Assembly: GCA_045862915.1 (NCBI GenBank) | Contig: BTVE01000010.1 | Coordinates: forward strand, 7,968 to 71,967 | DNA from: Acidimicrobiia bacterium | GTDB lineage: Bacteria > Acidobacteriota > Vicinamibacteria > Vicinamibacterales > SCN-69-37 | Reading direction: 5' to 3' | Length of the DNA: 64,000 nt | In this document: positions 6,994 to 31,259 of the stretch, piece after piece | Layout: the number at the start of each line of letters is the position of its first letter | How positions within the stretch are numbered: the first letter of the stretch is position 1 | Notes under the pieces: generated by a model | What the model was told of the DNA's origin: nothing | Seen by the model: the letters and a program-made list of their open reading frames with translations, nothing else | Databases searched by the model: none | Made by a program: the position numbers and the translations under genes

Positions 6994-7397
6994 TTCATCT
7001 CGACACCAGCTTTCTCATCGACCTCGAACGCGAGACCTTACGCGATCGACCCGGGGCGGCGTTCGAATTTCTTGAATCGCTGGACGCGGCGGAAGTCCTG
7101 GCCGTCTCGGTGCACGTGTTGTGTGAGTTACGAACTGGAGCTGAGCTCACCCGACAACCCATGCACGCCCACGAGGCCGTCGATCAACTGATTTCAGGCC
7201 TGCTGGTGGTGTATCCAGACGATCGATTTGCGCCCACCTATGCGCGACTGCTCGCAGCCATCAGGCAGGCCGGCCTCGTTGTTGCTGCCATGGATCTACT
7301 CATCGCGACTGCTGCGGTGCTCGACGATGCGCCGGTGGTGACGCGGAATGTCAAGGACTTCACCAGGATTCCCGGTCTACGCGTGTTGCAGTACTGA
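6990..7397 (+). CDS. vapC: PIN-domain ribonuclease toxin VapC
   Basis: 135 aa. MIHLDTSFLIDLE carries the N-terminal acidic residue, and the size and layout are PIN-like. Confidence 0.9.
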   Translation: MIHLDTSFLIDLERETLRDRPGAAFEFLESLDAAEVLAVSVHVLCELRTGAELTRQPMHAHEAVDQLISGLLVVYPDDRFAPTYARLLAAIRQAGLVVAAMDLLIATAAVLDDAPVVTRNVKDFTRIPGLRVLQY

Positions 7398-7900: not shown

Positions 7901-9307
7901 TCACTTCACCAGCCGCGTGTCCGGAAACTGCGCGTACCAGCCAAACCAGAACGCGCGGAAGGCGGCCACGCGGGGCAACTTTCGTCGGCCGCCTTCTGAT
8001 ACCAGTGCGTCCTCGGTGACGGTCCAGCGTGTGCCCGACCCGTCCCGCACCCGCCCGTCGTCAATCCATTCGACGATGCGGGTGTCGCCCACCTCGAAGA
8101 CACGATTGGCGCCGCGTCGTGAGGTCAACACGACAAACGAGCGGCCTTCGACCGTTTCGTGATGGATGCGTGTACGGGCCAGGTAGTCCGCTGAAAATGC
8201 GACGGCCTGGCGACCACCACCGACTGCCGGCACAAGGAGGCCCAGCACCTCATCCTTGTTCTTGAGCCTGGTGTCGAGTTTCGGCACACGGAACATGAGG
8301 CGGTCGGTCTGGAAGTAGTCGCGATAGGCCGCACCCTCCCCGTAGTCGCGATCGTGCCCGGTGTCGAGTGACAACACTGTCGTCTTCGGATGGGTGCGTC
8401 GCCACTCGCCCCACGTGGTGGTGACGATCGGCAGAGCTTCAAGCGTGAGCGGTTGTCCCGCGAGTGGACCGATCACCGGCGTGCCGTCGAGCGTGGACCA
8501 GAGACTCATCGACTCGCGATCGAACATGAGCTTGTTCGAACGATACAGCAGGCCGCTTGTGCCGAACGTCCGCTTCGTGTCGCCAACCACGCTTTTGTAC
8601 GGGATGACCGAGCCGCAGAGTGTGCAGTAGACGATGGTGAGGTCGACGTTACCGAAGCGGTCGAGCGCCATTTCGTGCCAGGCAAGAATGCGCTTGGGAT
8701 AGGCGCGAGCCTCACCGTTCACCACAAGTCCGAAGATGACGTGTGAGTCACCGAGATAGCCGGCTTCTGCCGCGGGAATGGTGCGCGCGTGATCCAGCGG
8801 GGGAATGCCGTTTACCCCAACACCGCCCCAGTCCACTTCATCGAGTCGGATGGTCGCGCGTGTGCGGGACTCAAAGAACTGCCGCATGCGCGGATCGATG
8901 TGCGCGTACACCGCCGCCTTGAACGCGGCGTACTCGGGGTGTGGGTCGAAGGGGAGGCTCCACATCCACTCGCGCCAGCGGTTGAGGTCATCGCCGAAGC
9001 GTTGACCGGTCTGCCGCTCGAGGAACCTGATCAGGCGGACACGCACGGGGTTCGGAAAGGGCTCGCCGTTCACCACCCGAGGCGGCAACAGGCGCGCCAC
9101 GTCGATGAACATGGCGGCCCAGCCGTCTTTCCATGATGCGGCGATCTGCGCCAACGCCCTGTCAGCCACTGCAGCGTCAGCTCCAGCGGCGTCGAGAAAG
9201 ACCGAGACAGGTGGAACCTGTGTCGCGCGCGCGCGGACATCTGCGCCCACGCCCACCAGCGCGGCGCCAACCAGAACGCCGACCGCGACGCGCAGCCCTC
9301 CTGTCAT
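7901..9307 (-). CDS. DUF3179 domain protein, secreted/anchored
   Basis: ORF 7901..9433. The ATG at 9307 (MTGGLRVAVGVLVGAALVGV) overlaps the DoxX stop as ATGA. DUF3179-type motif IVYCTLCGSVIPY is present. Confidence 0.8.
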   Translation of the reverse strand: MTGGLRVAVGVLVGAALVGVGADVRARATQVPPVSVFLDAAGADAAVADRALAQIAASWKDGWAAMFIDVARLLPPRVVNGEPFPNPVRVRLIRFLERQTGQRFGDDLNRWREWMWSLPFDPHPEYAAFKAAVYAHIDPRMRQFFESRTRATIRLDEVDWGGVGVNGIPPLDHARTIPAAEAGYLGDSHVIFGLVVNGEARAYPKRILAWHEMALDRFGNVDLTIVYCTLCGSVIPYKSVVGDTKRTFGTSGLLYRSNKLMFDRESMSLWSTLDGTPVIGPLAGQPLTLEALPIVTTTWGEWRRTHPKTTVLSLDTGHDRDYGEGAAYRDYFQTDRLMFRVPKLDTRLKNKDEVLGLLVPAVGGGRQAVAFSADYLARTRIHHETVEGRSFVVLTSRRGANRVFEVGDTRIVEWIDDGRVRDGSGTRWTVTEDALVSEGGRRKLPRVAAFRAFWFGWYAQFPDTRLVK

Positions 9308-9759
9308 GCGGCTTGATGATTGCCGATCCGCGCGCCGGTCGCGCTGCCAATCAGGTAGTCGAGCGAGAACATTCCTGGGCCCTTCGCCAGAATCAACAGC
9401 AGCGTACCGGCCCAGTAGAGGTGGTCGGCCCATGCGTTGGGATACACGAACGTCTGGATCACCGCGATCATGCCAAACAAGGGCAGCGTCGCGAGACGCG
9501 TTCCGAGACCGAGGAACAGGAACACCGGCAGCGCGAGCTCCTGAATCATGGCCATGCGGGCCCCGAACTCGGGGTCCAGAAAGGGCACCTTGTATTCGTC
9601 GCGGAAGAGCAACACGGTGAATTCAAAGGACTCGTATTTGAGGAGTCCGGCCTTGAAGAACACCATGCCGACGCCAACACGCGCGAGCAGCAGTAGCACG
9701 GACATGGGAATCCGGTCGAGGTGGGACGTGATGGCGTGATAACGGGCAGCTAGGGACAT
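9304..9759 (-). CDS. bufD: DoxX family membrane protein (BufD-like)
   Basis: 151 aa, four TM segments, DoxX-like N-terminus RIPMSVLLLLARVGVGMVFFKAG. Last conserved gene of DUF2282/DUF692/DUF2063/DoxX operons. Confidence 0.8.
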   Translation of the reverse strand: MSLAARYHAITSHLDRIPMSVLLLLARVGVGMVFFKAGLLKYESFEFTVLLFRDEYKVPFLDPEFGARMAMIQELALPVFLFLGLGTRLATLPLFGMIAVIQTFVYPNAWADHLYWAGTLLLILAKGPGMFSLDYLIGSATGARIGNHQAA

Positions 9760-10508
9760 ACAACAAGACCTTCGGAAAACAATTGGAGGAGAGTGGCGCC
9801 AGGGTCGAACGTGTCGTCGGCATCGAGTGCCGCACCGGCCGCGCCTTCAATGGAGTGGCCGTTGGCAAGCGCACGGCGGAAGCACCAGTCGCCCTGCGAG
9901 ATGGAACGAATCGTCACGTCTCCGCGCGAGCCTCGAACTTCAATCCAGCGGGGCGAGTCGTCGAGGGTGAACCGCTCAGGCGCCGCTTCGGAGAGGAACG
10001 CGCGCATCAGGTCATCGACGTTGTGAGCGGCCGCGACCCACGCGGTTCCCGGCTGAAGCGCGAGTGTCTGCGTGCCGAGGCCGGTGGGCCCCTGCGTCTG
10101 CAGCCACTGGACAGGCACCGATGGACGCGCGACTTCCACCGAGACACGCCCGAACTCCCATTCCAGCCTTGCGAACGCCTCCAAGTACGTGATGTGCGCG
10201 AGGGGTGCTCGTGCGCCCAGCCACGCCGGAAAGAGCGCGCCAAACTCCGCCATGCAGAAGACACGCGGCGGATGGACGGCGACGAACTCGCGCGCGGCAT
10301 CCATCACGGCGGCATCGCCAATCAGCCACGCCGTAGCAGGGAATCGACCACACAACGTTTCGATCAGGCTGGCCTGATAGTGACGCCGGTGAATCGTGAG
10401 CCGCCTCGTCGGATCGGCGCCGCCGATCAGAAGTGGCTTCACCCAAGCGTCGTCGGACATGACGACCCCTGCGCGCACGGCGGCCTGCGTCTCAGCCAGC
10501 GAGGGCAT
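9750..10508 (-). CDS. bufC: DUF2063 protein (BufC-like partner of the MNIO enzyme)
   Basis: ORF 9750..10574. The ATG at 10508 gives MPSLAETQAAVRAGVV, a typical DUF2063 start. Overlaps both neighbours. Confidence 0.75.
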   Translation of the reverse strand: MPSLAETQAAVRAGVVMSDDAWVKPLLIGGADPTRRLTIHRRHYQASLIETLCGRFPATAWLIGDAAVMDAAREFVAVHPPRVFCMAEFGALFPAWLGARAPLAHITYLEAFARLEWEFGRVSVEVARPSVPVQWLQTQGPTGLGTQTLALQPGTAWVAAAHNVDDLMRAFLSEAAPERFTLDDSPRWIEVRGSRGDVTIRSISQGDWCFRRALANGHSIEGAAGAALDADDTFDPGATLLQLFSEGLVVCP

Positions 10509-11400
10509 ACGTGCGGGTCCCCGACAGATTGTGTTCAGCCGCCGTGACGCCCGCCTCAGCGTGCGTCCGTGCACGCCGGGCCTCGTGGATCAACGAGCCG
10601 AGATCCTGAATGTCGTTGTCGCGTTCGATCAGCGTGGGTTTCGAGCCAATGTGGGCGACCGCGTATTCGTACAACGCCCATGACGCCTCATCAACCACGG
10701 TGCCATGCGTGTCGATGATGACCGTCCCCCCAGGTGTCGCGTCATCGTCTTCAACCTCGAACCCGCCGAGGTGCAGTTCGCCGACCGCAGACCAGGGGAG
10801 CGCTCGCACGTACGCGTGCGCGTCGAAGCCCATGTTGTGTGCGCTGAGGTGGATGTTGCTGACGTCCACCAGGAGCCGGCATCCTGTGCGCGCCACCAGT
10901 TCAGTCAGGAACTCCGGCTCGGTCATCGTCGAGCCGACAAAGCCGACGTAGCTGGAGGGGTTTTCCAGCAGAAACGACCGGCCAAACGTGTCCTGCACTT
11001 CGTTGATGTGTTGTGTGAGCACGGACAGGGATTCGTCGGTGTACGGCAGCGGGAGCAGGTCGTTGAGATATTCCCCCTCGTGGGTGGACCACGCGACGTG
11101 ACCGGAGAGCAGCACGGGGTTCACGCGATCGACGAGCGCCTTCACGCGGTGAAGGTGCGCGCGGTCAACGCCTGACGTGCTGCCGACCGACACACCAACG
11201 GTGTGAATCGAGATTGGGTAGTGCTCGGCGATCTGCAGCAGCAGTTCGGTGGCGTGCGGGTTGGCGAGGAACGACTCCGGGTGCACCTCGAAGAACGGGA
11301 CGTGTGGTCGGGTGGCCACCACCTCGGCCAGATGCGGGAGCCGCAGGCCGAGTCCGGCGCCTGAGTCGAGCGGATTCAGGGATGCGCGCATGATGACCAC
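10492..11400 (-). CDS. bufB: DUF692 / MNIO family enzyme (BufB-like, MbnB-related)
   Basis: 302 aa, TIM-barrel DUF692-like (GLGLRLPHLAEVV, HPESFL, SIHTVGVSVGS). Start is GTG 11400 or ATG 11391. Confidence 0.85.
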   Translation of the reverse strand: MVIMRASLNPLDSGAGLGLRLPHLAEVVATRPHVPFFEVHPESFLANPHATELLLQIAEHYPISIHTVGVSVGSTSGVDRAHLHRVKALVDRVNPVLLSGHVAWSTHEGEYLNDLLPLPYTDESLSVLTQHINEVQDTFGRSFLLENPSSYVGFVGSTMTEPEFLTELVARTGCRLLVDVSNIHLSAHNMGFDAHAYVRALPWSAVGELHLGGFEVEDDDATPGGTVIIDTHGTVVDEASWALYEYAVAHIGSKPTLIERDNDIQDLGSLIHEARRARTHAEAGVTAAEHNLSGTRTYALAG

Positions 11401-11413
11401 CCGTCCTGAGCTG

Positions 11414-11692
11414 TTACATCGGCTGCTTCGTGCCGTTGACGATGCGCTCGCAGTAGCCCTCGGCGACGAAGATCCACGCCTTCGGATCGCCGTTCATCTT
11501 CGAGTGTCCGGCGCACGAGTTGTTGCCGGTGGACGCGCAGTCGTTTTTGCCGGCCTTGGCAATGCCGTAGCACTTCTCGGCCTTGAACGCCGGGGCCTGG
11601 GCTTGAGTTGTGGTGACCGCAGCGTAGAGTGCGGGAGCGGAGACAGCGGCCGCAAGGGCCGAGGCGATGACGAGACGTTTGTTGACGGGCAT
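11414..11692 (-). CDS. bufA: DUF2282 secreted peptide, bufferin-type RiPP precursor (BufA1-like)
   Basis: The ATG at 11692 is preceded by AAGGAG. Sec signal MPVNKRLVIASALAAAVSAPALYA. The core has four Cys: EKCYGIAKAGKNDCASTGNNSCAGHSKMNGDPKAWIFVAEGYCE. Confidence 0.85.
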   Translation of the reverse strand: MPVNKRLVIASALAAAVSAPALYAAVTTTQAQAPAFKAEKCYGIAKAGKNDCASTGNNSCAGHSKMNGDPKAWIFVAEGYCERIVNGTKQPM

Positions 11693-11754
11693 AAGTGAAC
11701 TCCTTGTGAAAGAAACGATTCGACGACAACGGTGATTGCCGTGCCACTGTCTGT

Positions 11755-11780
11755 TTCGCAAGGGTCGAGCGGGCGGTTAC
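11755..11780 (-). promoter_or_regulatory. ECF (sigma-F/ECF16-type) promoter for the buf operon
   Basis: Minus strand reads GTAACC-gcccgctcgacccttg(16 nt)-CGAA. The CGAA box ends 62 nt upstream of the bufA ATG. Confidence 0.65.
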
Positions 11781-11813
11781 ATCGTGCGAAGCTCACGCCG
11801 AGACGCCGGCGCC

Positions 11814-12718
11814 CTAAACGTCGCGCAATCGATGCGCCTTGCGGCCACCGCGGCACGTCGTGTCGTGGTGCGGCGTCTGCACAAGACGAGCCGCAGTGGT
11901 CAGGGATCGATCCATCAGGCTCCGCGCCGCTTCGTGCAGGTCGTGGCTGTTGCTGACGTCGGCGACGTTGCGTTCCATGTCTTCCGCCGTCCAGCCGCGG
12001 GAGTGGGCGATGTACGGGAACGGGGGAAACACGCAGCCGATTTCCGCGAAGAACCCCAGCAGTTGTCCGGCGACGGCCTGCACGTTGTCCTGGCCGCCGG
12101 TGATGATCATCGCGGCCACCTTGTTCTGAATCAGTTCACGGTTGCGAATCGTGATCTGGTTCTGCACGCAGTTGAGGCGCTCCACCATCTTGTAATACAG
12201 CGCGCTGGCGCCCCCCCATCGAATCGGCGTCGCAATCAGGATCACGTCCGCCCAATGGACGATCGCTTCGTAGACCTGATCCATCTGGTCGCTCTTGTCC
12301 ATCTGCGTGATGGAACATGGCCGACCCGCAAGGGGCCGGCGGCGCGTGCGACCGGGCGCGCCAGTGGATGGGGTTCGTGCGGCATCTTGTGTCGCGAGGT
12401 GGCAGGCGTGAGATTGACCCATACGTGGCCGTCACGCAGCTCGACGTCGTGTCTGGGCACGCGGTCGGCCTCGTAGCCGGGTTCGCCTTCCCCGGTCCGG
12501 CAGTGAAACTTCCAGCCGTGCCACGGGCACGTCACGTAGTTGCCGTCCAGCCGCCCATCGCCCAGCGGGCCGCCGACGTCATTGCACACGCCTGAGATCG
12601 CGCTGAACTCGTCGTCAACATACGAGAGCGCCAGTCGCGTGCGGCCGTGTGTGATCGACTGCAGGGGGCGCGCTTTCAGCGCATCCGCGAGACCAAGGTC
12701 TACCCAGTTGTCAGCCAT
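11814..12718 (-). pseudogene. Rieske [2Fe-2S] domain fused to an Isf-like flavodoxin-fold FMN reductase, disrupted by a frameshift/internal deletion
   Basis: Two overlapping ORFs in different frames (12242..12718 and 11814..12422). The first carries a Rieske-like CNDVGGPL...CPWHGW and ends ...GPLRVGHV. The second begins homology at CSITQMDKSDQMDQVYEAIVHWADVILIATPIRWGG. The beta1-alpha1-beta2 part of the flavodoxin fold is absent. Confidence 0.55.
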
Positions 12719-12738
12719 GCCGCACGAGTCTACCGGAC

Positions 12739-12764
12739 TTCGACCGGCAGACGACTTCGGTAAC
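12739..12764 (-). promoter_or_regulatory. ECF-type promoter for the Rieske/flavodoxin gene
   Basis: Minus strand reads GTTACC-gaagtcgtctgccggt(16 nt)-CGAA, 20 nt upstream of the ATG at 12718. Its -35 box overlaps the -35 box of the opposite promoter. Confidence 0.5.
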
Positions 12765-12785
12765 TTCCGTCACCCGACCTTCGAA
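12760..12785 (+). promoter_or_regulatory. ECF-type promoter for the cytochrome P460-like gene
   Basis: Plus strand reads GTAACT-tccgtcacccgacctt(16 nt)-CGAA. It is followed by GGAGG (12797..12801) and the ATG at 12808. Confidence 0.5.
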
Positions 12786-12807
12786 GTCAGTGCATTGGAG
12801 GTCATTG

Positions 12808-13356
12808 ATGATAAATGTTCGCATTGCCGTGGTCGGAGGGGTGCTGTGCGCAGTTGCCGGATGCAGCGGCACAACGGCGCCCGCCGCTGACGCTCCTGGA
12901 TCGTCCGGCGTGCGGAGTGACGCCGACTTGTTCCGCCTGGTCACCCAGTCGGATCCGTTCACGCAATACACAGTGTTTCCACGGGTCGAGGAGTTCGCGA
13001 CCGGCCGACTGAACGGGTCAGAGGCGCACGCGCCCGTGGTCCGTGTGACACTCAACGCGACCGCTGCCGGCGCGCTTGTGGACGGCCGGCTTCCCGCAGG
13101 GAGAACCTTTCCGGATGGTGCCGTCGTGTTCAAGGAAGTGCGACCTTCCGCGACCGCCGCGCCAACGCTCTACGTGATCATGGTCAAGGACAGCACAAAC
13201 GGGGCGGCCGGGCAGGGATGGCTTTGGGCAGAGTACACACCAACAGGCGCCACGGCCTATTCCGTGGACCGTAGGGGTGGCGCCTGCATCAGCTGTCACT
13301 CACGCGAAGCCGGGCCCCAGCGGGATCTCGTCCGCACGTTCGAGCGCCAGCAGTAG
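12808..13356 (+). CDS. cytochrome P460-family haem lipoprotein
   Basis: ORF 12790..13356. The ATG at 12808 gives MINVRIAVVGGVLCAVAGCSG (lipobox). Single C-terminal haem motif CISCH in a roughly 180-aa protein with a GWLWAEY segment, as in the P460 family. Confidence 0.65.
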   Translation: MINVRIAVVGGVLCAVAGCSGTTAPAADAPGSSGVRSDADLFRLVTQSDPFTQYTVFPRVEEFATGRLNGSEAHAPVVRVTLNATAAGALVDGRLPAGRTFPDGAVVFKEVRPSATAAPTLYVIMVKDSTNGAAGQGWLWAEYTPTGATAYSVDRRGGACISCHSREAGPQRDLVRTFERQQ

Positions 13357-13371
13357 CAGTCCGGCCGCCAT

Positions 13372-13396
13372 GTAACCACCCGGCTGGTTGCCCGTA
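13372..13396 (+). promoter_or_regulatory. putative autoregulated ECF promoter of the sigma gene
   Basis: tGTAACC-acccggctggttgcc(15 nt)-CGTA, ending 7 nt before GTG 13404 and 16 nt before ATG 13413. Confidence 0.45.
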
Positions 13397-13412
13397 GTAC
13401 CGTGTGGCGTCC

Positions 13413-13979
13413 ATGACCGCCGCGGAAGAGGCCCAGGCCGCTGCGTTGATGCAGGCAGCACAGGGCGGAGACCAGACTGCATACATGCACCTGCTCGCGA
13501 CACTCACCATCGTCGCGCGGAGATTCGTGCGCCATCGTGCCGGCGCGACGACGTGGATCGACGATGCCGTGCAAGAGACGCTGATCTCCGTCCATCGCGC
13601 GCGTCACACATGGGACGGCACGCGTCCCTTTGCGCCCTGGTTCTACGCCATCGCCTCCCACCGCATCGTTGACGTGTATCGACGTGAACACCGGGTGCGG
13701 CTGCGCGAGGACGCGTCCGATCACCTGGAGGCGACCGCGTCTTCCCAGAACGTCGGCGACCCGGACGATGCCGTTGACATGGCGGCGGTGCACGCAGCGC
13801 TGGCTGCACTGCCGGCACGGCAGCGCGACATCGTGGAAGGCCTGAAGCTGCGGGAGGAATCGGTGAAAAGTCTGGCGGCCCGGCATGGGATGTCGGAGAG
13901 TGCGGTGAAGGTCATGGCGCACAGAGGCTACAAACGACTGCGAACGCTGCTGGGCGGGACGCCGGAGAACAGGTCATGA
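13413..13979 (+). CDS. ECF RNA polymerase sigma factor (SigF/ECF16-like by context)
   Basis: ORF from GTG 13404, ATG at 13413. Sigma-70 region 2 (DAVQETLISVHRARHTW..FAPWFYAIASHRIVDVYRRE) and region 4 (LPARQRDIVEGLKLREESVKSLAARHGMSESAVKVMAHRGYKRL). Confidence 0.9.
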   Translation: MTAAEEAQAAALMQAAQGGDQTAYMHLLATLTIVARRFVRHRAGATTWIDDAVQETLISVHRARHTWDGTRPFAPWFYAIASHRIVDVYRREHRVRLREDASDHLEATASSQNVGDPDDAVDMAAVHAALAALPARQRDIVEGLKLREESVKSLAARHGMSESAVKVMAHRGYKRLRTLLGGTPENRS

Positions 13980-14614
13980 GCCACGAACGACTGATTGCTG
14001 AACTTGTGGCGGATGTATCGCCGGTGACCCCGCTGCCGGCACCGCGCGTCCGTGCGGCCCGATGGATCCTCCTGGCAGTCGTGGCCGTCGGCGCGGCTGT
14101 CGCGCTGCGCGGCCTCCGTGACAACTGGCCGATGGCCATCTCCGATCCCGCCTTCGTGGTGACGACGGTGCTCGTCCTGGCGATTGGTGTCTCCGCCGCG
14201 ATGTTGACGATGGGCCTGGCCGTCCCCGGTGCTGTGAGCCGACCGTGGCTGCGGTGGATTCCCCCCGGCCTGCTGGTGGTGTGGTTGACGATCCTGCTCG
14301 TGGACGCCGCAATCGATGGTGCGCAGCTGACTCGGGGCGGGTGGGGCAGCAGCTGTCTGTGGAAGACGTGGGGCATCGGCGTCGGTCCCGCCGCGCTGTT
14401 GTTGACGATGGCGCGCAGTGCCACGCCACTCGACTGGCGATGGACGGCCGGCATGGCGGCCATTGCCGCGCTCGCGTTTGGTGTGCTCGGCACCGAGATG
14501 ATCTGCCCTGTGACCTCCCACGCCCACATCCTGACGTGGCACTTCCTGCCGGTAGCGCTGTCGTCAGCGGCGGTGTTTGGCGTTGTGGCTCTCTGGACGC
14601 GAAGCCGCGGGTAG
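13976..14614 (+). CDS. nrsF: NrsF-family (DUF1109) membrane anti-sigma factor
   Basis: ATGA overlap with the sigma gene. MSHERLIAELVADVSPVTPL is followed by six TM segments. Cys residues lie in predicted outer loops (SSCLWK, ICPVTSHAH). Confidence 0.8.
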   Translation: MSHERLIAELVADVSPVTPLPAPRVRAARWILLAVVAVGAAVALRGLRDNWPMAISDPAFVVTTVLVLAIGVSAAMLTMGLAVPGAVSRPWLRWIPPGLLVVWLTILLVDAAIDGAQLTRGGWGSSCLWKTWGIGVGPAALLLTMARSATPLDWRWTAGMAAIAALAFGVLGTEMICPVTSHAHILTWHFLPVALSSAAVFGVVALWTRSRG

Positions 14615-14675
14615 TCAACCCGTCCCCATCGGTCGGGGAATTTCCCACGAGGTGTCGCTGAGGAAATTGCCTGAG

Positions 14676-16448
14676 GTGCCGATTCGTGGGCGGCTGTGTT
14701 GTTCCAGGTACGGCATCGACATTGCGTTGACCCGCCCTGTGAAGCCGTTCGAGGTTCGAGTTGATCCTCAATCGGGGCAGCGGTACGTGGCGGTCAGTGT
14801 CAGAGGCGCGGCGCTCAAGGACGACCCGGTCCTGAACAAGGGCACGTGTTTCACCTCGGATGAACGGGAACAACTCGGGTTGCTCGGGCTGCTTCCCCCA
14901 GCCGTGCAGTCACCGGTCGACCAGGTGGAGCGCGCCTGGGGCAACTACCAGCGCGCGGGTGATGACGTCCACCGGTATCTCTTTCTCGCCGGTCTGCAGG
15001 ATCGCAACGAGCACCTGTTTGCGCAGCTCGTGTTGCAGCACCTCGAAGAAATGGTGCCCGTCATCTACACCCCGACGGTCGGCAAAGCGTGTGAGCAATA
15101 CAGTCACATCTACCGGCGCGCCCGCGGTCTCTACATCTCAGCCGCCGATCGGGGCCGCATCGCCGCGGTGCTCCGCAACAGCCGGGTCAGTCCCCGTGTG
15201 ATCGTCGCGACCGACAACGAGGCGATTCTGGGAATCGGTGATCAAGGTGTCGGCGGCATGCCGATCGCGATTGGCAAGCTGGCGCTGTATGCGATTGGCG
15301 CGGGTGTGCATCCGGCCGAATGCCTGCCGATCGATCTTGACGTGGGCACCGACAACCCCGGCCTGCTGGCCGATCCGATCTATCTCGGCGCGCGGCATCG
15401 ACGCCTGCGGGGTGACGCCTATTTCGATCTGCTGGATGAGTTCGTGGAGGCTGTCGCCACCGTGTTTCCGAGCGCGCTGGTTCAGTGGGAGGACTTCGCC
15501 AATCGCAACGCCTTCCAGGTTCTCGATCGGTACCGTCGCCGCGTGTTGTCGTTCAACGACGACATTCAGGGCACCGGAGCCATCGTGCTGGCCGGCATCC
15601 GCGCGGGGCTGCGCAGGATCGGCCGACCGCTGTCGGACACGCGCGTAGTGTTTCTGGGCGCGGGCGCGTCCGGTGCCGGCTGCGCACTCGCCGTGCGGGA
15701 GGCACTCCGCGGTGCCGGCGTGGGTGAACGGGATCTGGCCCGGCGCTTCCTGTGCCTCGACTCGCAGGGCCTGATCGTCGCCGACCGGCCCGGCCTGTCT
15801 GGTGCCAAGCAACAGATCGCCACCGATCCGGATCTGGTCGCGAGCTGGCGGCGCGAAGGTGATGGCACTCTGCGCCTGCCGGAAGTCGTTCGGCAGTTCG
15901 CACCGCAGGTGCTGGTGGGCGTGTCGGGGCAGCCCGGCGCGTTCACTGAGTCCATCGTGCGTGACATGGCCGCCTCCGGACCGCCCATCATCCTGGCGTT
16001 GTCCAATCCCACCAGCCGTGTGGAGGTGACGCCCGCCGAAGTGCTGGCCTGGACCAATGGCACCGCGATCGTGGGAACGGGCAGCCCGTTTCCACCGGTC
16101 ACCGTTGACGGCATCCCTCGACGCATCGGTCAGGGCAACAACGTGTTCATCTTCCCCGGAGTCGGTCTCGGTGCCACGGCAGTCCAGGCCCGCTGGCTGC
16201 CCGATCAGGCGTTCTCCGCGGCGGCCGAAGCGGTCTTCCGCTTCACGCTGGCTACCAGCGACGACGCGATCTTTCCACCACTCGCGGCGCTGCGTGAGGT
16301 GTCGCGCCAGGTGGCGATTGCCGTCGGCCGCGACCTCGTGGCTTGCGGCGCGGCACCCGCGCTGGATGACGCCGAGGTGGAACGCCGGGTGGATGCCGGC
16401 ATGTGGACACCGGACTATCTGCCGTACCGTCCGGTCAGCGCGGGATAA
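14676..16448 (+). CDS. NAD(P)-dependent malic enzyme
   Basis: ORF 14577..16448. Motifs LNKGTCFT, VIYTPTVG, NDDIQGTG, FLGAGASG. The start is uncertain: GTG 14676 follows GAGGAA, and TTG 14727 or GTG 14739 are also in frame. Confidence 0.9.
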   Translation: MPIRGRLCCSRYGIDIALTRPVKPFEVRVDPQSGQRYVAVSVRGAALKDDPVLNKGTCFTSDEREQLGLLGLLPPAVQSPVDQVERAWGNYQRAGDDVHRYLFLAGLQDRNEHLFAQLVLQHLEEMVPVIYTPTVGKACEQYSHIYRRARGLYISAADRGRIAAVLRNSRVSPRVIVATDNEAILGIGDQGVGGMPIAIGKLALYAIGAGVHPAECLPIDLDVGTDNPGLLADPIYLGARHRRLRGDAYFDLLDEFVEAVATVFPSALVQWEDFANRNAFQVLDRYRRRVLSFNDDIQGTGAIVLAGIRAGLRRIGRPLSDTRVVFLGAGASGAGCALAVREALRGAGVGERDLARRFLCLDSQGLIVADRPGLSGAKQQIATDPDLVASWRREGDGTLRLPEVVRQFAPQVLVGVSGQPGAFTESIVRDMAASGPPIILALSNPTSRVEVTPAEVLAWTNGTAIVGTGSPFPPVTVDGIPRRIGQGNNVFIFPGVGLGATAVQARWLPDQAFSAAAEAVFRFTLATSDDAIFPPLAALREVSRQVAIAVGRDLVACGAAPALDDAEVERRVDAGMWTPDYLPYRPVSAG

Positions 16449-16845: not shown

Positions 16846-17292
16846 ATGTCGAAGCACTCTGATGCAGTGGTTGATGCCCTCTCCCGCCTGCTGGCCGACA
16901 GCTACACGCTCTACCTCAAGACGCACAACTATCACTGGAACGTGACCGGGCCGATGTTTACGACTCTGCACACGTTGTTCATGACGCAGTACTCGGAGCT
17001 GGCGCTGGCGGTGGATGACATCGCAGAGCGAATCCGATCCCTGGGCGCGTACGCACCAGGCAGTTACACCGACTTCAAGGCGTTGTCCAAGGTGAAGGAA
17101 GCCAGCGGTCACCCCTCGGCCACGCAGATGATCAAGACGCTCGTGGCCGATCAGGCCACCATCGTCGAGGCCGCTCGAGCCGTCTTCAAGGCCGCCGAGA
17201 AGGCCGGGGACCAGGCGACGGCAGACCTGGCCACGCGCCGGCTGGACGTCCATGAAAAGAACGCGTGGATGCTCCGGAGCCACCTCGAGTAA
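16846..17292 (+). CDS. dps: Dps (DNA starvation/stationary phase protection, ferritin-like)
   Basis: The ATG at 16846 lies inside ORF 16057..17292. LADSYTLYLKTHNYHWNVTGPMFTTLHTLFMTQYSELALAVDDIAERI carries the ferroxidase residues. Confidence 0.9.
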   Translation: MSKHSDAVVDALSRLLADSYTLYLKTHNYHWNVTGPMFTTLHTLFMTQYSELALAVDDIAERIRSLGAYAPGSYTDFKALSKVKEASGHPSATQMIKTLVADQATIVEAARAVFKAAEKAGDQATADLATRRLDVHEKNAWMLRSHLE

Positions 17293-17314
17293 CCTGCACG
17301 CGGGACTGAACGAA
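17289..17314 (+). promoter_or_regulatory. ECF (sigma-F-type) promoter for the redoxin gene
   Basis: Perfect GTAACC-tgcacgcgggactgaa(16 nt)-CGAA. The -35 box overlaps the dps TAA. The CGAA box ends 8 nt before the ATG at 17323, implying a leaderless or near-leaderless mRNA. Confidence 0.6.
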
Positions 17315-17322
17315 AGGTAGTC

Positions 17323-18345
17323 ATGGTGCGATCCGTTCTCGGAGCATTGGTGCTCGCCGGTGGTGTGCTGCTGGCCTCACCGCAGCAGGCGCAGCAGGTG
17401 GATGTCACGACGCTTGGACCCCAAGTGGGCCAGCGCGCGATTGAGTTCCGGCTGCCGGATCAGCAGGGCCGGGCTCAAACGCTGGCCTCGGTTGCCGGGC
17501 CGAAGGGCACGATGCTCGTGTTCTTCCGTTCGGCGGACTGGTGACCGTACTGCCGCACGCAGCTGGTCGAGCTGCAACGACATCTCAAGGACGTCACCGA
17601 CGCGGGCTACGGACTCGCCGCGATCAGTTATGACTCTGTCGAGACGCTGAAAGCGTTTTCGGATAAACACAGCATCACGTTCCCGCTGTTGTCCGATGCA
17701 GGATCGAAAACGATTTCGGCCTGGGGCATCCTCAACACGGCGGCGACCGGGCGCACCGCGGGTATTCCGCATCCGGGCACGTTCATGCTCGATCGCAGCG
17801 GGAAGATTGTGTCGCGCTCGTTCGAGCAGCCGTATCAGGAACGCCGGAGCGCCACGAGCATCCTCTCGGTGCTGGCCAGCGCGACGCCGGGGCAGACCAC
17901 CACGCTCAAGGGTGGGCAGGCGACATTTGTGTTGTCGACCAGCGACGCCGTTGCGGCGGTCGGGCACAAGGTGACCCTCAGCGTGCGTGTGACGCCCGGT
18001 CCGAAGATGCATGTCTACGCGCCAGGCCAGAAGGGGTACATCCCGATCACGCTGACGCTCAAGCCCGATGCGGCCTTCAAGGCGGGCGCCGTTCGATACC
18101 CGGCGTCAACGACCTATCACTACAAGCCGCTGAACGAGACCGTGCAGGTGTTCTCGGCGCCGTTCACGCTCGCGCAGGACATTACGATCTCACTGGCGCG
18201 AGACGTCCAGGCTCGGGCTGCCGCTGGAGAGGTCCTCACGATTGCCGGCGAGCTTGAATACCAGGCGTGTGATGACACTGTCTGTTATCGGCCGGAAACG
18301 ATCCCGGTCGAATGGAAGGTGACGCTGAGCCCGATCGTCCGATAA
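17323..18345 (+). CDS. exported thioredoxin-fold redoxin (AhpC/TSA-like) fused to a DsbD-alpha-like domain; in-frame TGA at 17542..17544 (candidate selenocysteine, otherwise a pseudogene)
   Basis: ORFs 17323..17544 and 17689..18345 are in the same frame, and I find no other stop between them. Read-through gives FFRSADW-[TGA]-PYCRTQLVEL...TFPLLSD...GIPHPGTFMLDRSGKI, one continuous redoxin domain. This is followed by a DsbD-alpha-like domain ending EYQACDDTVCYRPE. Signal peptide MVRSVLGALVLAGGVLLASPQQAQQ. Confidence 0.6.
17554..17579 (+). other. SECIS-like hairpin downstream of the in-frame TGA
   Basis: CG-cac-GCAGC-uggucga-GCUGC-aa-CG. The 5-bp apical stem is at 17559..17563 / 17571..17575, with a closing CG/CG. 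The apical loop has GG at positions 2-3 and starts 19 nt after the UGA. Confidence 0.35.
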
Positions 18346-26408: not shown

Positions 26409-27020
26409 ATGGATCCTCGCGCACATTGGGAGACGGTGTATCAGTCGAAGGGTGACGCGGAGGTCAGTTGGACCGAACCCGTGCCGGCCGTCTCGCTGCG
26501 GATGCTGGAGGCCGCCGGCATGACCAGGGACACGTGCGTCGTTGATATCGGTGGTGGGAACTCGCGGCTGGTGGATGCACTGCTGGGGCGCGGCCTCGAG
26601 TGTCTGGCGGTGCTCGATGTGGCGCCTTCGGCCGTTGCACGTGCGCAGGCCCGGTTGGGCGCTGCGGCGCATGTGCCGACCTGGATCATCGGTGACGTGA
26701 CCGGCGACTGGTCGCTCAAACCGATGGACATCTGGCACGACCGCGCGGTGTTCCACTTTCTCACCACGCCCGAGGCGCGGCAACGGTATCGGGCGCATCT
26801 GGCCGATACACTCAAGCCAGGCGGCGCGGCCATTGTGGCCACGTTTGCGCCCGATGGGCCGGACCGGTGCAGCGGCCTGCCCGTGCAACGGTATGCGCCG
26901 GAGGAACTGGCGGCCGAGTTTGCGGAGGTGCTGACGTTGGTCGAGTCGATGCCGTACCAGCATGCGACTCCGTGGGGAGCGATGCAGTCGTTCCAGTACA
27001 GCCGATTCGTGCGGTCGTGA
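26409..27020 (+). CDS. class I SAM-dependent methyltransferase
   Basis: GTG 26406 / ATG 26409 follow GGGGGAGAG. SAM motif VVDIGGGNSRLV. Confidence 0.8.
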   Translation: MDPRAHWETVYQSKGDAEVSWTEPVPAVSLRMLEAAGMTRDTCVVDIGGGNSRLVDALLGRGLECLAVLDVAPSAVARAQARLGAAAHVPTWIIGDVTGDWSLKPMDIWHDRAVFHFLTTPEARQRYRAHLADTLKPGGAAIVATFAPDGPDRCSGLPVQRYAPEELAAEFAEVLTLVESMPYQHATPWGAMQSFQYSRFVRS

Positions 27021-28162
27021 CTCCGGCGGGTCGTGGTGCTTGGGTCGACCTTGTGGGGCTGTTTCTGCGCCTCGGCACCACGGCGTTTGGCGGCCCCGCG
27101 GCCCACATCGCGCTGATGGAAGACGAGGTGGTCAGGCGGCGTTCCTGGCTCACCCGCGAGCAGTTTCTTGACTATGTCGGCGCGACGAACCTGATCCCGG
27201 GACCGAACTCCACGGAGCTGGCCATCCACATCGGTCACCTGCGAGCAGGGTGGCCCGGATTGATTGTCGCCGGCGTCTGTTTCATCGTTCCTGCATCGAT
27301 CATCGTGTGGGCGCTGGCGTGGGCGTACGTCGCGTACGGCGCCCTGCCTCAGGTCGCCGGCGTGTTGTATGGCGTGAAACCCGTCGTGTTGGCGGTTGTC
27401 GGGCAAGCGCTTTGGGGCCTGGGCCGGACTGCGATCAGGACGTCCGGCCTTGCGATTGTCGCCGCGGTTGCCGTCGCCGCCTCGGCGTTTGGTGTGCATG
27501 AACTCGCGATCCTGTTGCTGGCCGGCTTGACCGCCGGCGCCGGCGCGGCCATGGCGCGGGGTGGTGTTGCGGCAGCCTGGACTGCAGCCGTCACAAGCGC
27601 GACGGGTTCAGCCGCAGGTGCGGCCACTGCCGCAGTTGTACCAGTGAGTCTGAATGCGGTGTTTTGGGTGTTCGCGAAGGCCGGGGCGGTGCTCTACGGT
27701 AGCGGATATGTCCTGCTGGCCTTTCTGCGTGCGGATCTTGTACAGCGTCTCGGATGGCTGACCGAGGCTCAGCTGATTGATGCCATCGCGATCGGGCAGG
27801 TCACGCCGGGGCCGGTGTTCACCACGGCGACGTTCATCGGGTACGTCGTGGCGGGAACGCCTGGTGCGATTGTGGCCACGGTCGGGATCTTTCTGCCGGC
27901 GTTTGTCTTCGTCGCCGTCAGCGGGCCGCTTGTGCCGCGCCTGCGACGGTCCGCGTTTGCCGGTCGAGTGCTGGATGGTGTGAATGTCGCATCGCTGGCG
28001 TTGATGGCCGTCGTGTCCTGGCACCTCGGGCGAACGGCTCTCGTTGATCCCGTCTCCATCGGCCTGTGCGTTGGGAGCCTGGTAGCGTTGGTCCGCTACC
28101 GCGTGAATTCGACATGGCTGATTGTGGTCGGCGCGCTCGCAGGCGTGCTGGCTGAGACATGA
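27017..28162 (+). CDS. chrA: chromate efflux transporter ChrA
   Basis: ORF 26867..28162. GTG 27017 overlaps the methyltransferase TGA (GTGA). CHR motifs FGGPAAHIALMEDEVV and a second half with IGQVTPGPVFTTATFIGY. Confidence 0.9.
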   Translation: MTPAGRGAWVDLVGLFLRLGTTAFGGPAAHIALMEDEVVRRRSWLTREQFLDYVGATNLIPGPNSTELAIHIGHLRAGWPGLIVAGVCFIVPASIIVWALAWAYVAYGALPQVAGVLYGVKPVVLAVVGQALWGLGRTAIRTSGLAIVAAVAVAASAFGVHELAILLLAGLTAGAGAAMARGGVAAAWTAAVTSATGSAAGAATAAVVPVSLNAVFWVFAKAGAVLYGSGYVLLAFLRADLVQRLGWLTEAQLIDAIAIGQVTPGPVFTTATFIGYVVAGTPGAIVATVGIFLPAFVFVAVSGPLVPRLRRSAFAGRVLDGVNVASLALMAVVSWHLGRTALVDPVSIGLCVGSLVALVRYRVNSTWLIVVGALAGVLAET

Positions 28163-28169
28163 AGAACGA

Positions 28170-28200
28170 CGGGGCCGGCACCGCCGTGGCACCGGCCCCG
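28170..28200 (+). terminator. GC-rich stem-loop after chrA
   Basis: CGGGGCCGG-(13 nt)-CCGGCCCCG begins 8 nt after the chrA stop. There is no U-tract, so function as an intrinsic terminator is uncertain. Confidence 0.35.
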
Positions 28201-28343
28201 TGGGCTGCTGCGAACGTTCGGAGGCCAGTCAGAACGCGAACCGCAGACCCATCCACCCGACGTGTGCCGTGTAACCGGGCGCCAGGTATGTTCCGAAGTT
28301 GAAGAGGCAATTTCCCCACTGATGGGATCGCGAGGTATCGCGA

Positions 28344-28703
28344 AGCAGCGTGTCTGCGAAGCGAGCGGAGATGGGCCGACAACTCCGCGAACGCAAACGG
28401 CTTGACAAGATAGTCGTCGGCGCCGCAGTCCAGCCCCGAGACTCGATCCTCCACGGTGTCGCGGGCCGTCAGCACCAGGACTGGAACAGTCAATCCCCGA
28501 TGCCTGAGTCCGGTCAGAATTTCGAGTCCGTCTCTGCCGGGCAGGCCCAAGTCCAGTACGATGACATCAAAGGGCTCGTTGGTCGCGCGGAAGTACCCAT
28601 CCTCACCGGACCGGGAAACAACGACTTCGTAGCCCTCACCGGTCAGCCCAGTCCGGAGAGCGCCCGCGACCTTGAAGTCGTCCTCGACAATGAGTAGACG
28701 CAT
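28344..28703 (-). pseudogene. truncated OmpR/CusR-type response regulator (receiver domain only)
   Basis: MRLLIVEDDFKVAGALRTGL...VIVLDLGLPGRDG...LVLTARD...GADDYLVKPFAFAELSAHLRSLRR. Similarity then stops. There is no winged-helix domain, and the ORF runs on antisense into chrA down to 27918. Confidence 0.7.
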
Positions 28704-28794
28704 CGATGCACCGTTTGCACGATACCGCGATTGTGACGACTGAACTCTGAAGTCTTGTTCAGGAGCGCTGCATTCCTCTGGAGTGGCATCGCAG

Positions 28795-28845
28795 GAGACG
28801 ATTCCGGTCGAGTGGAAGGTGACGTTGAGCCCCATCGTGCGGTGA
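28795..28845 (+). pseudogene. 3'-terminal remnant of a paralogue of the redoxin-DsbD-alpha gene
   Basis: 17 codons ETIPVEWKVTLSPIVR-stop are identical in amino acids to 18295..18345. The frame is closed by a TGA at 28741 and has no credible start. Confidence 0.55.
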
Positions 28846-28889
28846 GAGGCGGGGTTGCGCTCGGGCGCCGGATGGCTCATTGTTACGGC

Positions 28890-29549
28890 ATGCAGACACG
28901 ACTCACTCTGACGTCGTCACTGGCCCTGGCCGTGGCGGCCATGTCTCTCATGGGCACGCAGGTCGCCGCACGGCAGAGCCCGGTGTCTTCGCCGTGTGAT
29001 CGTGCGCCGGTCTCCGAAGGGCGTGATCGCGCGATTCAGCGCACGGCCGGAGACCTGCAGGTCTGCCTGCTCGCTGAGGCGGTGGACGCCGGAACCGCTG
29101 ATGCCCCTCCGAGCCGCTGGGTTGCCAATGCGGCGCGCATCGTCATCGAGACAAGGCAGGGCAATACCGTCCAGCGGTTGGAACGGGCCGGCGGACGCGA
29201 ATCTTGGTCCGTCAACGGCACGCCGCGCCCCGTTGACGAGGCGGTCCACACGTGGCGCGACCGCGCGCTCGAGGCGCTTGACGCCCCTTTGGAAATCGCG
29301 CGCCTGCAGTTGCGGATGGCGGCGGAGCGCAGCGCGATGAACCGCCTGCGCATGAGCCCCAGCCGCGTCTATGTGCCCGTCGACCCGACGAAGCTGGAAG
29401 TCGATATCGCCATCGAACGACGGGAGCGCGTGCGCATCCAGTCGGAACTCAGCGACCACCAGTTTGCGATCACGCGGATGGAGCGCGACATCAGGCTGCA
29501 TGAGGCCGCGATGACCAGGCTCACCGATGCGGTTGTTGCGCTACGGTAG
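28890..29549 (+). CDS. hypothetical secreted protein
   Basis: The ATG at 28890 inside ORF 28755..29549 gives signal MQTRLTLTSSLALAVAAMSLMGTQVAA. Arg/Glu-rich helical C-terminal half. Confidence 0.55.
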   Translation: MQTRLTLTSSLALAVAAMSLMGTQVAARQSPVSSPCDRAPVSEGRDRAIQRTAGDLQVCLLAEAVDAGTADAPPSRWVANAARIVIETRQGNTVQRLERAGGRESWSVNGTPRPVDEAVHTWRDRALEALDAPLEIARLQLRMAAERSAMNRLRMSPSRVYVPVDPTKLEVDIAIERRERVRIQSELSDHQFAITRMERDIRLHEAAMTRLTDAVVALR

Positions 29550-29557
29550 CCGCGTCG

Positions 29558-30535
29558 TCAGCGAATGAAGGTGCGGGCCGCAGGAGTGAATCCGGTGGGC
29601 AGGCCGTAGTGCGAGTCGAAAATTTCCGCCCGCACAGTGTCGGCGTCCAGCATCTGCACACGCAGCACGACGCTTTTGGATGCCGCATACGGGAACCGGA
29701 AGTCGACGACGCCCGAAGCGGTGCTGACGTCAGCCGGGCTGGGACCCGTCTCGGCAGACAACGGGAAGTAGGTAGCGATCGACGGGTGCCAGGCCGTCGC
29801 TTCCAGGCGGGGCCCGCCGGCGGTCCTATTTTCGACGAACCACAGCCAGCCCGGCTTGAACACCGGCTCAGTGCTCGAGGCCAGCGGCACGTCTGGCGCA
29901 AACCAGAGACCCTGCAGTCGCCCGGCGACATCGTAGTTGACTCGCCATTCCCCCTGACCGGCCAGAAGTGCCTCCACCTGGCTTCGGAGGTCGACCCGGA
30001 AATACGGAATCGGGGACTCGGCGTGTTGAATCCTCGCCGGATATCGTGATGGTCGGACAAACGGCTGGCTGACACCCGAACTCCAGACGCCGAGGCCCAC
30101 ACCTGTGTCGGCGACCGAGCGCGTGCCAACCCTGTCTCCTGCGGACACGACTGCACCGGGGCCGGCCGTGAAGCTGAGTCCGAGACCTCTGAGGTAGAAC
30201 CGTCGCTCCCCGTGACCGCCGACCACCCACTCCGTGTAGCCCAACGGGTCAGTGGTCAGTGATTCCACGATGCCGCCCGCCGGCGCAAAGACTTCAAGCT
30301 GGCGCTCGCTGCTGAAGAACCAGATGTAAGGTTGAATGGGCTCGTTCGATGTCGGTCGATAACCGGCCTGCGACACCGCGAAGCCACCTCGCCCGTTACC
30401 GGGGAGCAGCGGAAACGCAGTGAATTCAAGCGGGGCGTTCGGCGTGCCTGGGGACGTCGTCGACGATGAGCTGCACGCAGATGCGAAGGACAGGCACAGG
30501 AAACCAGTGACGGCAAGTCGAAGGCCGTGAGCCAT
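29558..30535 (-). CDS. hypothetical lipoprotein
   Basis: The ATG at 30535 gives MAHGLRLAVTGFLCLSFASACSS (lipobox). No family recognised. Confidence 0.6.
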   Translation of the reverse strand: MAHGLRLAVTGFLCLSFASACSSSSTTSPGTPNAPLEFTAFPLLPGNGRGGFAVSQAGYRPTSNEPIQPYIWFFSSERQLEVFAPAGGIVESLTTDPLGYTEWVVGGHGERRFYLRGLGLSFTAGPGAVVSAGDRVGTRSVADTGVGLGVWSSGVSQPFVRPSRYPARIQHAESPIPYFRVDLRSQVEALLAGQGEWRVNYDVAGRLQGLWFAPDVPLASSTEPVFKPGWLWFVENRTAGGPRLEATAWHPSIATYFPLSAETGPSPADVSTASGVVDFRFPYAASKSVVLRVQMLDADTVRAEIFDSHYGLPTGFTPAARTFIR

Positions 30536-30719
30536 ACGCCGATGATAGTCCACAGGCCGCGTCTGTCCGTCTCGCGTCATAACTGCCCGATGACGAACAT
30601 TGCCCTGGCTCGAGGTCTCACCGGTGCCTGGGTCTGGCTGGCGTCTGGCCTGGCTGCCGCGCCCTTGAGGAGAGCACACATCACAAATAACGACGGGTCA
30701 CTTTCGTAAGGGGAGAACC

Positions 30720-31259
30720 ATGACCCACCTGTTGTTGTCGGTATTTGTTGTTGTTGTCGGATCCGGCGCGATTCAGCCGACCAAGGCTCCGCCACCGTGG
30801 TTTGCGGAACAACTCGCACTGCTCACGGCAAACGGAGGACGGTGGGAGGCCGACAACACCAGGTACCGTTCCGCTGACGAACCGGTGGACACCTACGTGC
30901 TCGTGTGGGACTGGGGACCCGGTCGCCGCTCGATTCGAGGTCGTTTGTTTGGTGTCGCGGGTGGCCAGGACACTCAGGTGTTCTGGGAGTTCCGGCAGTT
31001 CTGGGATCCCAACACCGGCACGGTGCGGCTGCAGCAGCATGGCGCACCGGGGATTCGGGCGGACGGCACCATCACACGGACGCCGGAGGGCAACTACCTG
31101 ATCGACCAAATGTTCTGGAGTCCCGATGGGTCTTCGTGGCGGGAGACACACACGGAAACGTCCACTCCCACCGAACGTCTGTCGAAAAGTGCGCGGATGC
31201 GTGACGGCACGTGGGCACCGGGCCGCGAGTACGTCTGGCGACTCAAGCTGTCCGCCTAA
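30720..31259 (+). CDS. hypothetical secreted protein
   Basis: AAGGGGAG precedes the ATG. 179 aa, N-terminal hydrophobic segment, Trp-rich. Confidence 0.6.
   Translation: MTHLLLSVFVVVVGSGAIQPTKAPPPWFAEQLALLTANGGRWEADNTRYRSADEPVDTYVLVWDWGPGRRSIRGRLFGVAGGQDTQVFWEFRQFWDPNTGTVRLQQHGAPGIRADGTITRTPEGNYLIDQMFWSPDGSSWRETHTETSTPTERLSKSARMRDGTWAPGREYVWRLKLSA

Follow-up and report, generated by a model that had tools for sequence, protein, structure and literature searches.

A probable SigF-like ECF16 sigma factor, its NrsF partner and part of their predicted regulon in Acidobacteriota DNA

The window analysed here is a 64,000-nucleotide stretch of Vicinamibacterales (Acidobacteriota) DNA, positions 7,968 to 71,967 on the forward strand of contig BTVE01000010.1 (NCBI GenBank assembly GCA_045862915.1). 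Very probably it carries a SigF-like sigma factor of the extracytoplasmic function (ECF) group ECF16, the NrsF protein paired with it, and part of the regulon that they control. On this reading four of its five promoter-like boxes are real promoters, namely those ahead of the bufferin gene bufA, a cytochrome P460-like lipoprotein gene, the sigF-nrsF pair itself and a gene for an AhpC/TSA-DsbD_N fusion protein, and the fifth, ahead of a Rieske-FMN reductase gene, is most likely weak or non-functional. The system is of a known kind, an ECF16 SigF/NrsF pair with a Buf1 bufferin cluster, here in Acidobacteriota, and no new mechanism is revealed. The P460-like, DUF3179 and AhpC/TSA-DsbD_N members of the regulon are not described in model organisms.

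An earlier note on this DNA had described four of the boxes as sigma-F-type, added the fifth at 17289, and read them together as a five-promoter ECF regulon. The letters, positions and strands it gave are correct, the fifth box is present too, and the label is apt, as the pattern of the boxes equals the published consensus of ECF16, of which Caulobacter SigF is the prototype (PMC3511200). The regulon itself is supported for the bufA, P460-like, sigma-gene and 17289 boxes, which match the consensus and recur at a matching distance before orthologues; the Rieske side is doubtful.

The boxes and their recurrence before related genes

The sequence GTAACC-N16-CGAA was mapped in Caulobacter by 5′RACE (Kohler et al. 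2012, PMC3511200). The ECF16 consensus is tGTAACc-N16-CGAA, with a start site in Bradyrhizobium japonicum 6 bp past the −10 (PMC3420878), and the Brucella promoters of the group read TGTAAC...CGAA (PMC8315932). In the window the consensus is matched exactly by the bufA box and by the one at 17289, with near-matches ahead of the P460-like and sigma genes. GTAACC-N15-CGTAGTA, the extended form found at the sigma gene, has one exact match there.

Related Vicinamibacterales material, 671 kb in total, was drawn from 44 genome loci encoding relatives of the sigma factor, 51 metagenome loci encoding relatives of the P460-like protein and six loci around the closest orthologues (single loci are cited below as L001 and so on). 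GTAACC-N16-CG(A/T)A occurs in it 77 times against 1.4 expected, and from an alignment of the sites the extended consensus reads T-GTAACC-N16-CG(T/A)A-G-T-A. Among the 69 boxes in sigma loci, 45 (65%) lie no more than 100 nt from the first start codon of an open reading frame (ORF), compared with 12% of random positions; this measure replaced a looser one, 'upstream of an ORF', that 57% of random positions pass. Besides the genes considered below, boxes in relatives precede genes for MsrP, methionine-rich thioredoxin-like proteins, Spondin_N proteins, lactonase-type propellers and DUF3179 proteins. The presence of MsrP and methionine-rich genes behind boxes fits the ECF16 regulons centred on methionine sulfoxide reductase (Msr) in the literature (PMC8315932).

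That the boxes are chance matches in G+C-rich DNA, devoid of meaning, is extremely improbable. It might be said for chance that the pattern of the earlier note had been made degenerate after its matches were seen, and that single matches exist elsewhere in the window (28271, 35155, 29692 and 47201). However, the degenerate pattern GTWACY-N16-CGWA has 4 matches in the 64-kb window against 0.16 expected, and none of 100 shuffled sequences reached 4, so that within the window the non-random clustering suggested earlier survives its shuffled-sequence control. Since that pattern had been shaped once the matches were known, the published consensus, set in advance from the literature, was run as well: GTAACC-N16-CGAA with at most one mismatch gives 6 matches against 1.73 expected, a number reached by one of 100 shuffles, and four of the six are boxes under study. 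The excess in the related loci also speaks against chance, and these loci are not redundant copies, their sigma factors being 50–86% identical. The box positions are conserved ahead of orthologous genes, and the consensus that they fit was published before the analysis. For the bufA, P460-like, sigma-gene and 17289 boxes the chance reading is already refuted.

Two of the single matches are the additional GTAACC occurrences to which the earlier note had denied a plausible promoter position. Both exist and both are badly placed: that at 28271 (N17) is antisense within a response-regulator gene, and that at 35155 (N15) covers the final codons of one gene and is directed into the 3′ end of a convergent gene. 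The candidates at 29692 (GGAACC) and at 47201 (CGAC, where a gene start is overlapped) were taken for chance matches and rejected as promoter boxes.

About 33 of 37 related loci have GTAACC-N15/16-CGTAGTA directly ahead of the sigma gene. The N15 spacing of the window and its 16-nt distance to the start codon are both found again in L001, L002, L004 and L008, which belong to its closest relatives; the sigma promoter of L034 uses GTAACT. The sigma factor is of the group IV type, with regions 2 and 4 only by Pfam, and its start is placed at ATG 13413, not GTG 13404, because its closest homologues are 188 amino acids long. Its gene and nrsF overlap by 4 nt, and the sigma factor is translationally coupled to the NrsF/DUF1109 protein, in which C127 and C177, 50 residues apart, are the sole cysteines. 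Over 11300–14700 a scan for sigma-70-type promoters found no promoter-like site, and a terminator scan found one terminator-like site, inside nrsF, neither outcome being informative. An Rfam scan of the whole window found no family at its gathering score, and hence no known riboswitch, leader or selenocysteine insertion sequence (SECIS) model.

The bufA box is kept at 58–63 nt ahead of bufA in L001, L007 and L100. Behind it, as judged from profile matches, the Buf1 bufferin cluster is complete, with its DUF2282, MNIO, DUF2063 and DoxX genes. The sigma, NrsF and bufferin context inferred earlier is borne out by Pfam and NCBIfam matches. From bufA through bufB, bufC and doxX to the DUF3179 gene (7901..11692, minus strand) the gene ends overlap or are at most 22 nt apart, which suggests that the five genes form one operon read from the bufA promoter. 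In relatives, DUF3179 genes follow nrsF in L046–L050 and have SigF boxes of their own in L008, L052 and L097; for these reasons DUF3179 is counted as a recurrent member of the regulon.

In the P460-like protein, C160, C163 and H164 (a CxxCH haem motif) and the lipobox cysteine are invariant in an alignment of 27 homologues. Though its −35 in the window is the variant GTAACT (GTAACT-N16-CGWA occurs 3 times in the related loci), the site in L100, at 92% DNA identity, is a perfect GTAACC-N16-CGAA, likewise 22 nt ahead of the ATG. P460 homologues are behind SigF boxes in L046, L047, L049, L050 and L052; in the first four of these the homologue is the second gene after one for a Spondin_N protein, and the SigF box of the operon is divergent from the sigma gene. 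More distant homologues (at most 55% identity; L053–L083) have no boxes, and the link between P460 and SigF is thus limited to a close clade.

Boxes also precede the orthologous peroxiredoxin-DsbD_N gene in L005, L007 and L016. As the ATG in the window is only 8 nt past the −10, the transcript is predicted to be nearly leaderless. The −35 of this box, GTAACC at 17289–17294, contains the TAA stop (17290–17292) of the upstream Dps/ferritin-like gene (16846–17292).

Table 1. Coordinates in the window of the five boxes and of the genes discussed
Feature	Position	Strand	Identification or reading	−10 to start codon
bufA box, GTAACC-N16-CGAA (T before)	11780..11755	minus	predicted SigF/ECF16-type promoter of the bufferin operon; exact published consensus	62 nt to ATG 11692
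Rieske-side box, A-GTTACC-N16-CGAAGTC	12764..12739	minus	doubtful	20 nt to ATG 12718
P460-like box, GTAACT-N16-CGAAGTC	12760..12785	plus	predicted SigF-type promoter; Shine-Dalgarno GGAGG at 12797-12801	22 nt to ATG 12808
Sigma box, T-GTAACC-N15-CGTAGTA	13372..13399 (to CGTA: 13396)	plus	predicted autoregulatory promoter of sigF-nrsF	16 nt to ATG 13413
Peroxiredoxin-gene box, GTAACC-N16-CGAA	17289..17314	plus	predicted SigF-type promoter of the AhpC/TSA-DsbD_N gene	8 nt to ATG 17323
ECF sigma factor	13413-13979	plus	Pfam Sigma70_r2 (39-97), Sigma70_r4_2 (128-179); 188 amino acids	
NrsF/DUF1109 anti-sigma factor	13976-14614	plus	Pfam NrsF PF06532, E=9e-23, profile positions 1-193 of 204	
bufA (DUF2282)	11414-11692	minus	Pfam DUF2282 7.5e-22	
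bufB (MNIO)	10492-11391	minus	Pfam MbnB_TglH_ChrH 7e-91; NCBIfam MNIO_BufB equivalog 324 bits, cut-off 310	
bufC (DUF2063)	9750-about 10508	minus	Pfam DUF2063 9e-15	
doxX	9304-9759	minus	Pfam DoxX 4e-13	
DUF3179 gene	7901-about 9307	minus	packed directly behind doxX	
Cytochrome P460-like lipoprotein	12808..13356	plus	Pfam PF16694	
Rieske [2Fe-2S]-FMN reductase fusion gene, disrupted	11814..12718	minus	two overlapping ORFs in different frames (Pfam)	
AhpC/TSA-DsbD_N fusion gene	17323..18345	plus	in-frame TGA 17542-17544 at the first Cys of W-C-P-Y-C	

Competing readings and the Rieske side

Some points weigh against the regulon as read here. All of the promoter calls come from sequence and its conservation. 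The best NCBIfam matches of the sigma factor are without exception below their cut-offs, and its assignment to ECF16 is drawn from the NrsF partner, the promoter consensus and the gene context. The sigF gene of Caulobacter is weakly autoregulated and has a second input (PMC3511200), which makes the strength of autoregulation in the window system uncertain. The boxes may also be real and yet be read mainly by a paralogous ECF sigma factor, not by the product of the 13413 gene. As to the fifth box, the Rieske and P460 sides share an exact N16 and an identical extended −10, CGAAGTC, and it is hard to put down to chance that this heptamer occurs three times in 53 nt when about 11 copies are expected per whole window.

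Reading by a paralogue is quite improbable. B. japonicum does have ECF paralogues, EcfF and EcfS, with similar promoters, and cross-talk between them has been suggested (PMC3420878). Caulobacter sigF has the second input already mentioned, and a second pair, of ECF sigma factor and zf-HC2 anti-sigma factor, is near the locus in L096 and L099. However, the boxes travel with the sigma-NrsF pair (some 33 of the 37 loci have them immediately ahead of the pair and of its divergent neighbour), and they fit the consensus of exactly the ECF16 group. In the two relatives just named the second sigma factor and its zf-HC2 partner, together with a histidine kinase, are close to the Rieske-FMN reductase gene (L096 6197–7057, L099 821–1672); cross-talk could come from this pair.

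The Rieske-FMN reductase gene of the window is itself disrupted. When it is aligned with the orthologues of L001 and L096, which are intact, a deletion of 184 nt is seen at the junction 12323/12324; it causes a frameshift, and the flavodoxin-like domain loses its N-terminal part. The 120 best homologues are all single intact proteins of 360–399 amino acids. Either the window copy is a pseudogene or the assembly is in error here. All that L100 retains of the gene is a 24-nt remnant of its 3′ end (L100 1126–1149, equal to window 11804–11827), which is about 25 nt upstream of the P460 box. Given its disruption in the window and its near-complete deletion in L100, the gene appears to be decaying in the clade.

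The stretch between bufA and the sigma gene (window 11693–13412, L001 3998–6000, L100 232–1827) differs in all three of these close relatives: it holds the Rieske pseudogene and the P460-like gene in the window; an intact Rieske gene and a gene for a 237-amino-acid protein (no Pfam match), and no P460 gene, in L001; and the 237-amino-acid gene, the Rieske remnant and the P460 gene in L100. The region is a local hot spot that has been rearranged repeatedly.

The box on the Rieske side does not conform either. Of the two opposed −35 elements only that of the P460 side has the GTAAC core, the other being GTTACC, and conservation ahead of orthologues is likewise found for the P460 side (L100, L052) and not for the Rieske side. 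In the related loci GTTACC-N16-CGWA occurs 0 times where 1.45 are expected, and GTTACC was rejected as a tolerated −35 variant; GTAACT, GTAACA and ATAACC are mildly enriched there. The presence of GTTACC opposite the P460 box is in any case little evidence, because any GTAAC reads GTTAC on the opposite strand, and the far-side CGAA alone is independent. No SigF box is found ahead of the Rieske-FMN reductase orthologues of five loci (L001, L096, L097/L098, L099), though that of L001 keeps synteny next to bufA, and the gene was dropped as a conserved member of the regulon.

The earlier note had seen here a divergent promoter whose two −35 boxes share cGGTAACt on opposite strands. This sequence is indeed present, at 12758–12765, and is common to both boxes. 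A promoter on the Rieske side, and with it a divergent pair of overlapping −35 elements, is not supported, in view of the count for GTTACC, the lack of a box before orthologues, the frameshifted gene and the arrangement of such pairs elsewhere. About 27 divergent SigF box pairs are present in the relatives, where they are typical of the family, a hallmark even; their −35 hexamers are 2–72 bp apart (2 bp in L008 and L011, 4 bp in L004, 11–14 bp in many), and none of the pairs overlaps.

Nevertheless, a reading in which all five boxes work deserves some weight, though it is the less credible one. The Rieske and P460 boxes would then form a bidirectional promoter, the −35 elements sharing one GTAAC core and the transcripts being mutually exclusive. 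A12762 is the centre of symmetry of the arrangement, the spacing is N16 on either side, and the extended −10 CGAAGTC that the two have in common is within an 8-nt inverted repeat, GACTTCGA/TCGAAGTC. In relatives the consensus likewise has G and T behind CGWA, the 20 nt to the Rieske ATG is within the family range, and divergent SigF box pairs are, as said, common. Given the P460 −35, finding CGAAGT at exactly N16 on the other strand has a probability estimated from base composition at ~2e-4. Set against this, GTTACC breaks the AAC core, from which no mapped ECF16 promoter and none of the 77 family sites departs, and its zero occurrences fall short even of the chance expectation. The orthologous gene has no box in five loci, the gene itself is frameshifted in the window and almost wholly deleted in L100, and where divergent pairs do occur the smallest gap is 2 bp. 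Activity of the Rieske-side box is accordingly put at a minority chance, of the order of one in three, and a weak or non-functional box is the most likely state. The overlapping −35 elements, the only unusual claim, depend on a non-canonical box ahead of a decaying gene, and the arrangement has no parallel among relatives.

The three copies of CGAAGTC (12736–12788: minus 12742..12736, minus 12759..12753 and plus 12782–12788) admit another explanation, that they are the operator of a dimeric regulator which adds a second layer of control to the P460 promoter. This is unlikely. Two copies are direct and one inverted, all within 53 nt, and the window as a whole has no excess of the heptamer (12 copies against 10.7 expected), features that would suit an operator. 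Two of the three copies, however, coincide with the −10 regions of the opposed boxes and have the G and T that the consensus shows behind CGAA; the third borders the −35. With 37 nt between its arms, the inverted repeat is wide for a single dimer; L100 is without the left copies and has kept its P460 box; and no candidate regulator gene adjoins the region.

Proposed working and known counterparts

By analogy with SigF/NrsF of Caulobacter, EcfF/OsrA of Bradyrhizobium and BcrS/AbcS of Brucella, NrsF would hold the sigma factor at the membrane. A signal in the envelope, whether oxidative, hypochlorite or metal, may be sensed with the help of the two conserved cysteines and free the sigma factor. 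RNA polymerase with the sigma factor is then expected to start transcription about 6 bp downstream of the −10 at tGTAACC-N15/16-CG(A/T)A(GT), which puts the predicted starts at about 11749 (−), 12791 (+), 13402 (+) and 17320 (+), the last almost leaderless. From the 13372 promoter the sigma factor would boost its own synthesis (positive autoregulation), and it would turn on the bufferin operon, for a copper-chelating ribosomally synthesised and post-translationally modified peptide, together with the P460-like haem lipoprotein and the AhpC/TSA-DsbD_N protein. The Rieske box, if it works, could fire only in alternation with the P460 promoter. The products of the four promoters are all exported or periplasmic proteins of redox or metal handling.

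The closest model is Caulobacter, with a sigma gene followed by a DUF1109/NrsF gene. Its SigF regulon consists of two DUF2282-DUF692-DUF2063(-DoxX) operons and yedY/msrP, and sigF has a similar promoter of its own (PMC3511200). The order of sigma and anti-sigma genes, the box GTAACC-N16-CGAA, the promoter of the sigma gene and the bufferin operon (DUF2282-DUF692-DUF2063-DoxX) adjoining it in the regulon are the same in the window. While Caulobacter belongs to the Alphaproteobacteria, the window is from Acidobacteriota; the −10 of its sigma gene is CGTAGTA with N15, and it adds the P460-like haem lipoprotein, the probable selenoprotein AhpC/TSA-DsbD_N and a DUF3179 gene that extends the buf operon. 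The window shows no msrP, though one stands behind a box in the relative L015.

In B. japonicum, ecfF-osrA (Masloboeva et al. 2012, PMC3420878) is likewise an autoregulated operon with a GTAAC...CG(t/a) promoter, and the targets include periplasmic thioredoxin/DsbD-like proteins and Msr enzymes. Two cysteines 50 residues apart are again found in the anti-sigma factor: C129 and C179 are essential for the function of OsrA (PMC3420878), correspond to C127 and C177 of the window NrsF, and have been noted in Brucella AbcS as well (PMC8315932). The B. japonicum system differs in its N14-15 spacer, in the lack of a bufferin operon among its reported targets and in that its inducers, H2O2 and singlet oxygen, are known.

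Brucella BcrS/AbcS and Azospira SigF/NrsF, which mediate a hypochlorite response (PMC8315932, PMC4436054), are ECF16 pairs with TGTAAC and CGAA promoters too. Their targets are methionine-rich periplasmic scavengers and MsrQP/YedY; methionine-rich thioredoxin-like and MsrP genes are behind boxes in the Vicinamibacterales relatives, whereas neither a methionine-rich scavenger gene nor msrP is seen in the window. In relatives the gene divergent from the sigma gene often encodes a secreted thioredoxin-like protein with a methionine-rich N-terminal region (L003, L004, L006, L019, L020), and the MsrP (Oxidored_molyb) gene of L015 follows a box at 7197–7222. These genes echo the scavenger and Msr pairs of the Azospira and Brucella ECF16 regulons.

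Buf1 clusters (Leprevost et al. 2024/2025, PMC11626156, PMC12452194) have bufA, bufB, bufC and doxX, as here, and sigma factor and NrsF genes recur in them (PMC12452194). In the window, by comparison, a pseudogene and the P460-like gene stand between the cluster and the sigma gene, and DUF3179 extends the operon. It is a further example of a bufferin cluster under predicted SigF control.

The gain is mainly one for annotation. The ECF16 switch with its promoter code, known from work on Alphaproteobacteria, appears to apply with hardly any change to soil Acidobacteriota that have not been cultured, and the regulon can thus be read from metagenome sequence alone. Three poorly understood families, the P460-like haem lipoproteins, the DUF3179 proteins and the AhpC/TSA-DsbD_N fusion with its probable selenocysteine, would thereby be tied to a response to oxidative or metal stress in the envelope, which gives each of them a testable context. 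A bolder version is rather doubtful. According to it the ECF16 regulon of Vicinamibacterales has expanded into a set of periplasmic redox and metal defences undescribed for the proteobacterial models. The set would comprise a bufferin operon with DUF3179 added, a P460-like haem lipoprotein that often has a Spondin_N protein as its partner, and an AhpC/TSA-DsbD_N peroxidase with selenocysteine, the mRNA of which is nearly leaderless; in the window strain one GTAAC core would also serve as the −35 of two opposed, mutually exclusive promoters.

The in-frame TGA and a chromate transporter ORF

The AhpC/TSA-DsbD_N protein is probably a selenoprotein in which the TGA encodes selenocysteine. The Pfam AhpC-TSA profile is split into 1–36 and 39–122 around the TGA and continues across it, and the TGA at W-*-P-Y-C is shared by 8 of 8 homologues, the most distant of them at 45% identity. 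Gene-calling programs divide the gene into two parts (75 and 250 amino acids in L097). A hairpin just downstream, GCAGCU-GGUCG-AGCUGC (17559–17575), is conserved and is a candidate SECIS; in L030 and L036 a change lengthens its stem. It is within conserved coding sequence, and its fold is not above that of shuffles (z = −0.5). As its energy is no better than that of shuffles, the selenocysteine call is carried by the conserved TGA alone.

Chromate is an inducer of Caulobacter SigF. Gene boundaries over 27000–31300 of the window are unclear from codon-position G+C, and an ORF for a ChrA chromate transporter (26867–28162, plus strand) and one for a response regulator (27918–28880, minus strand) overlap as listed.

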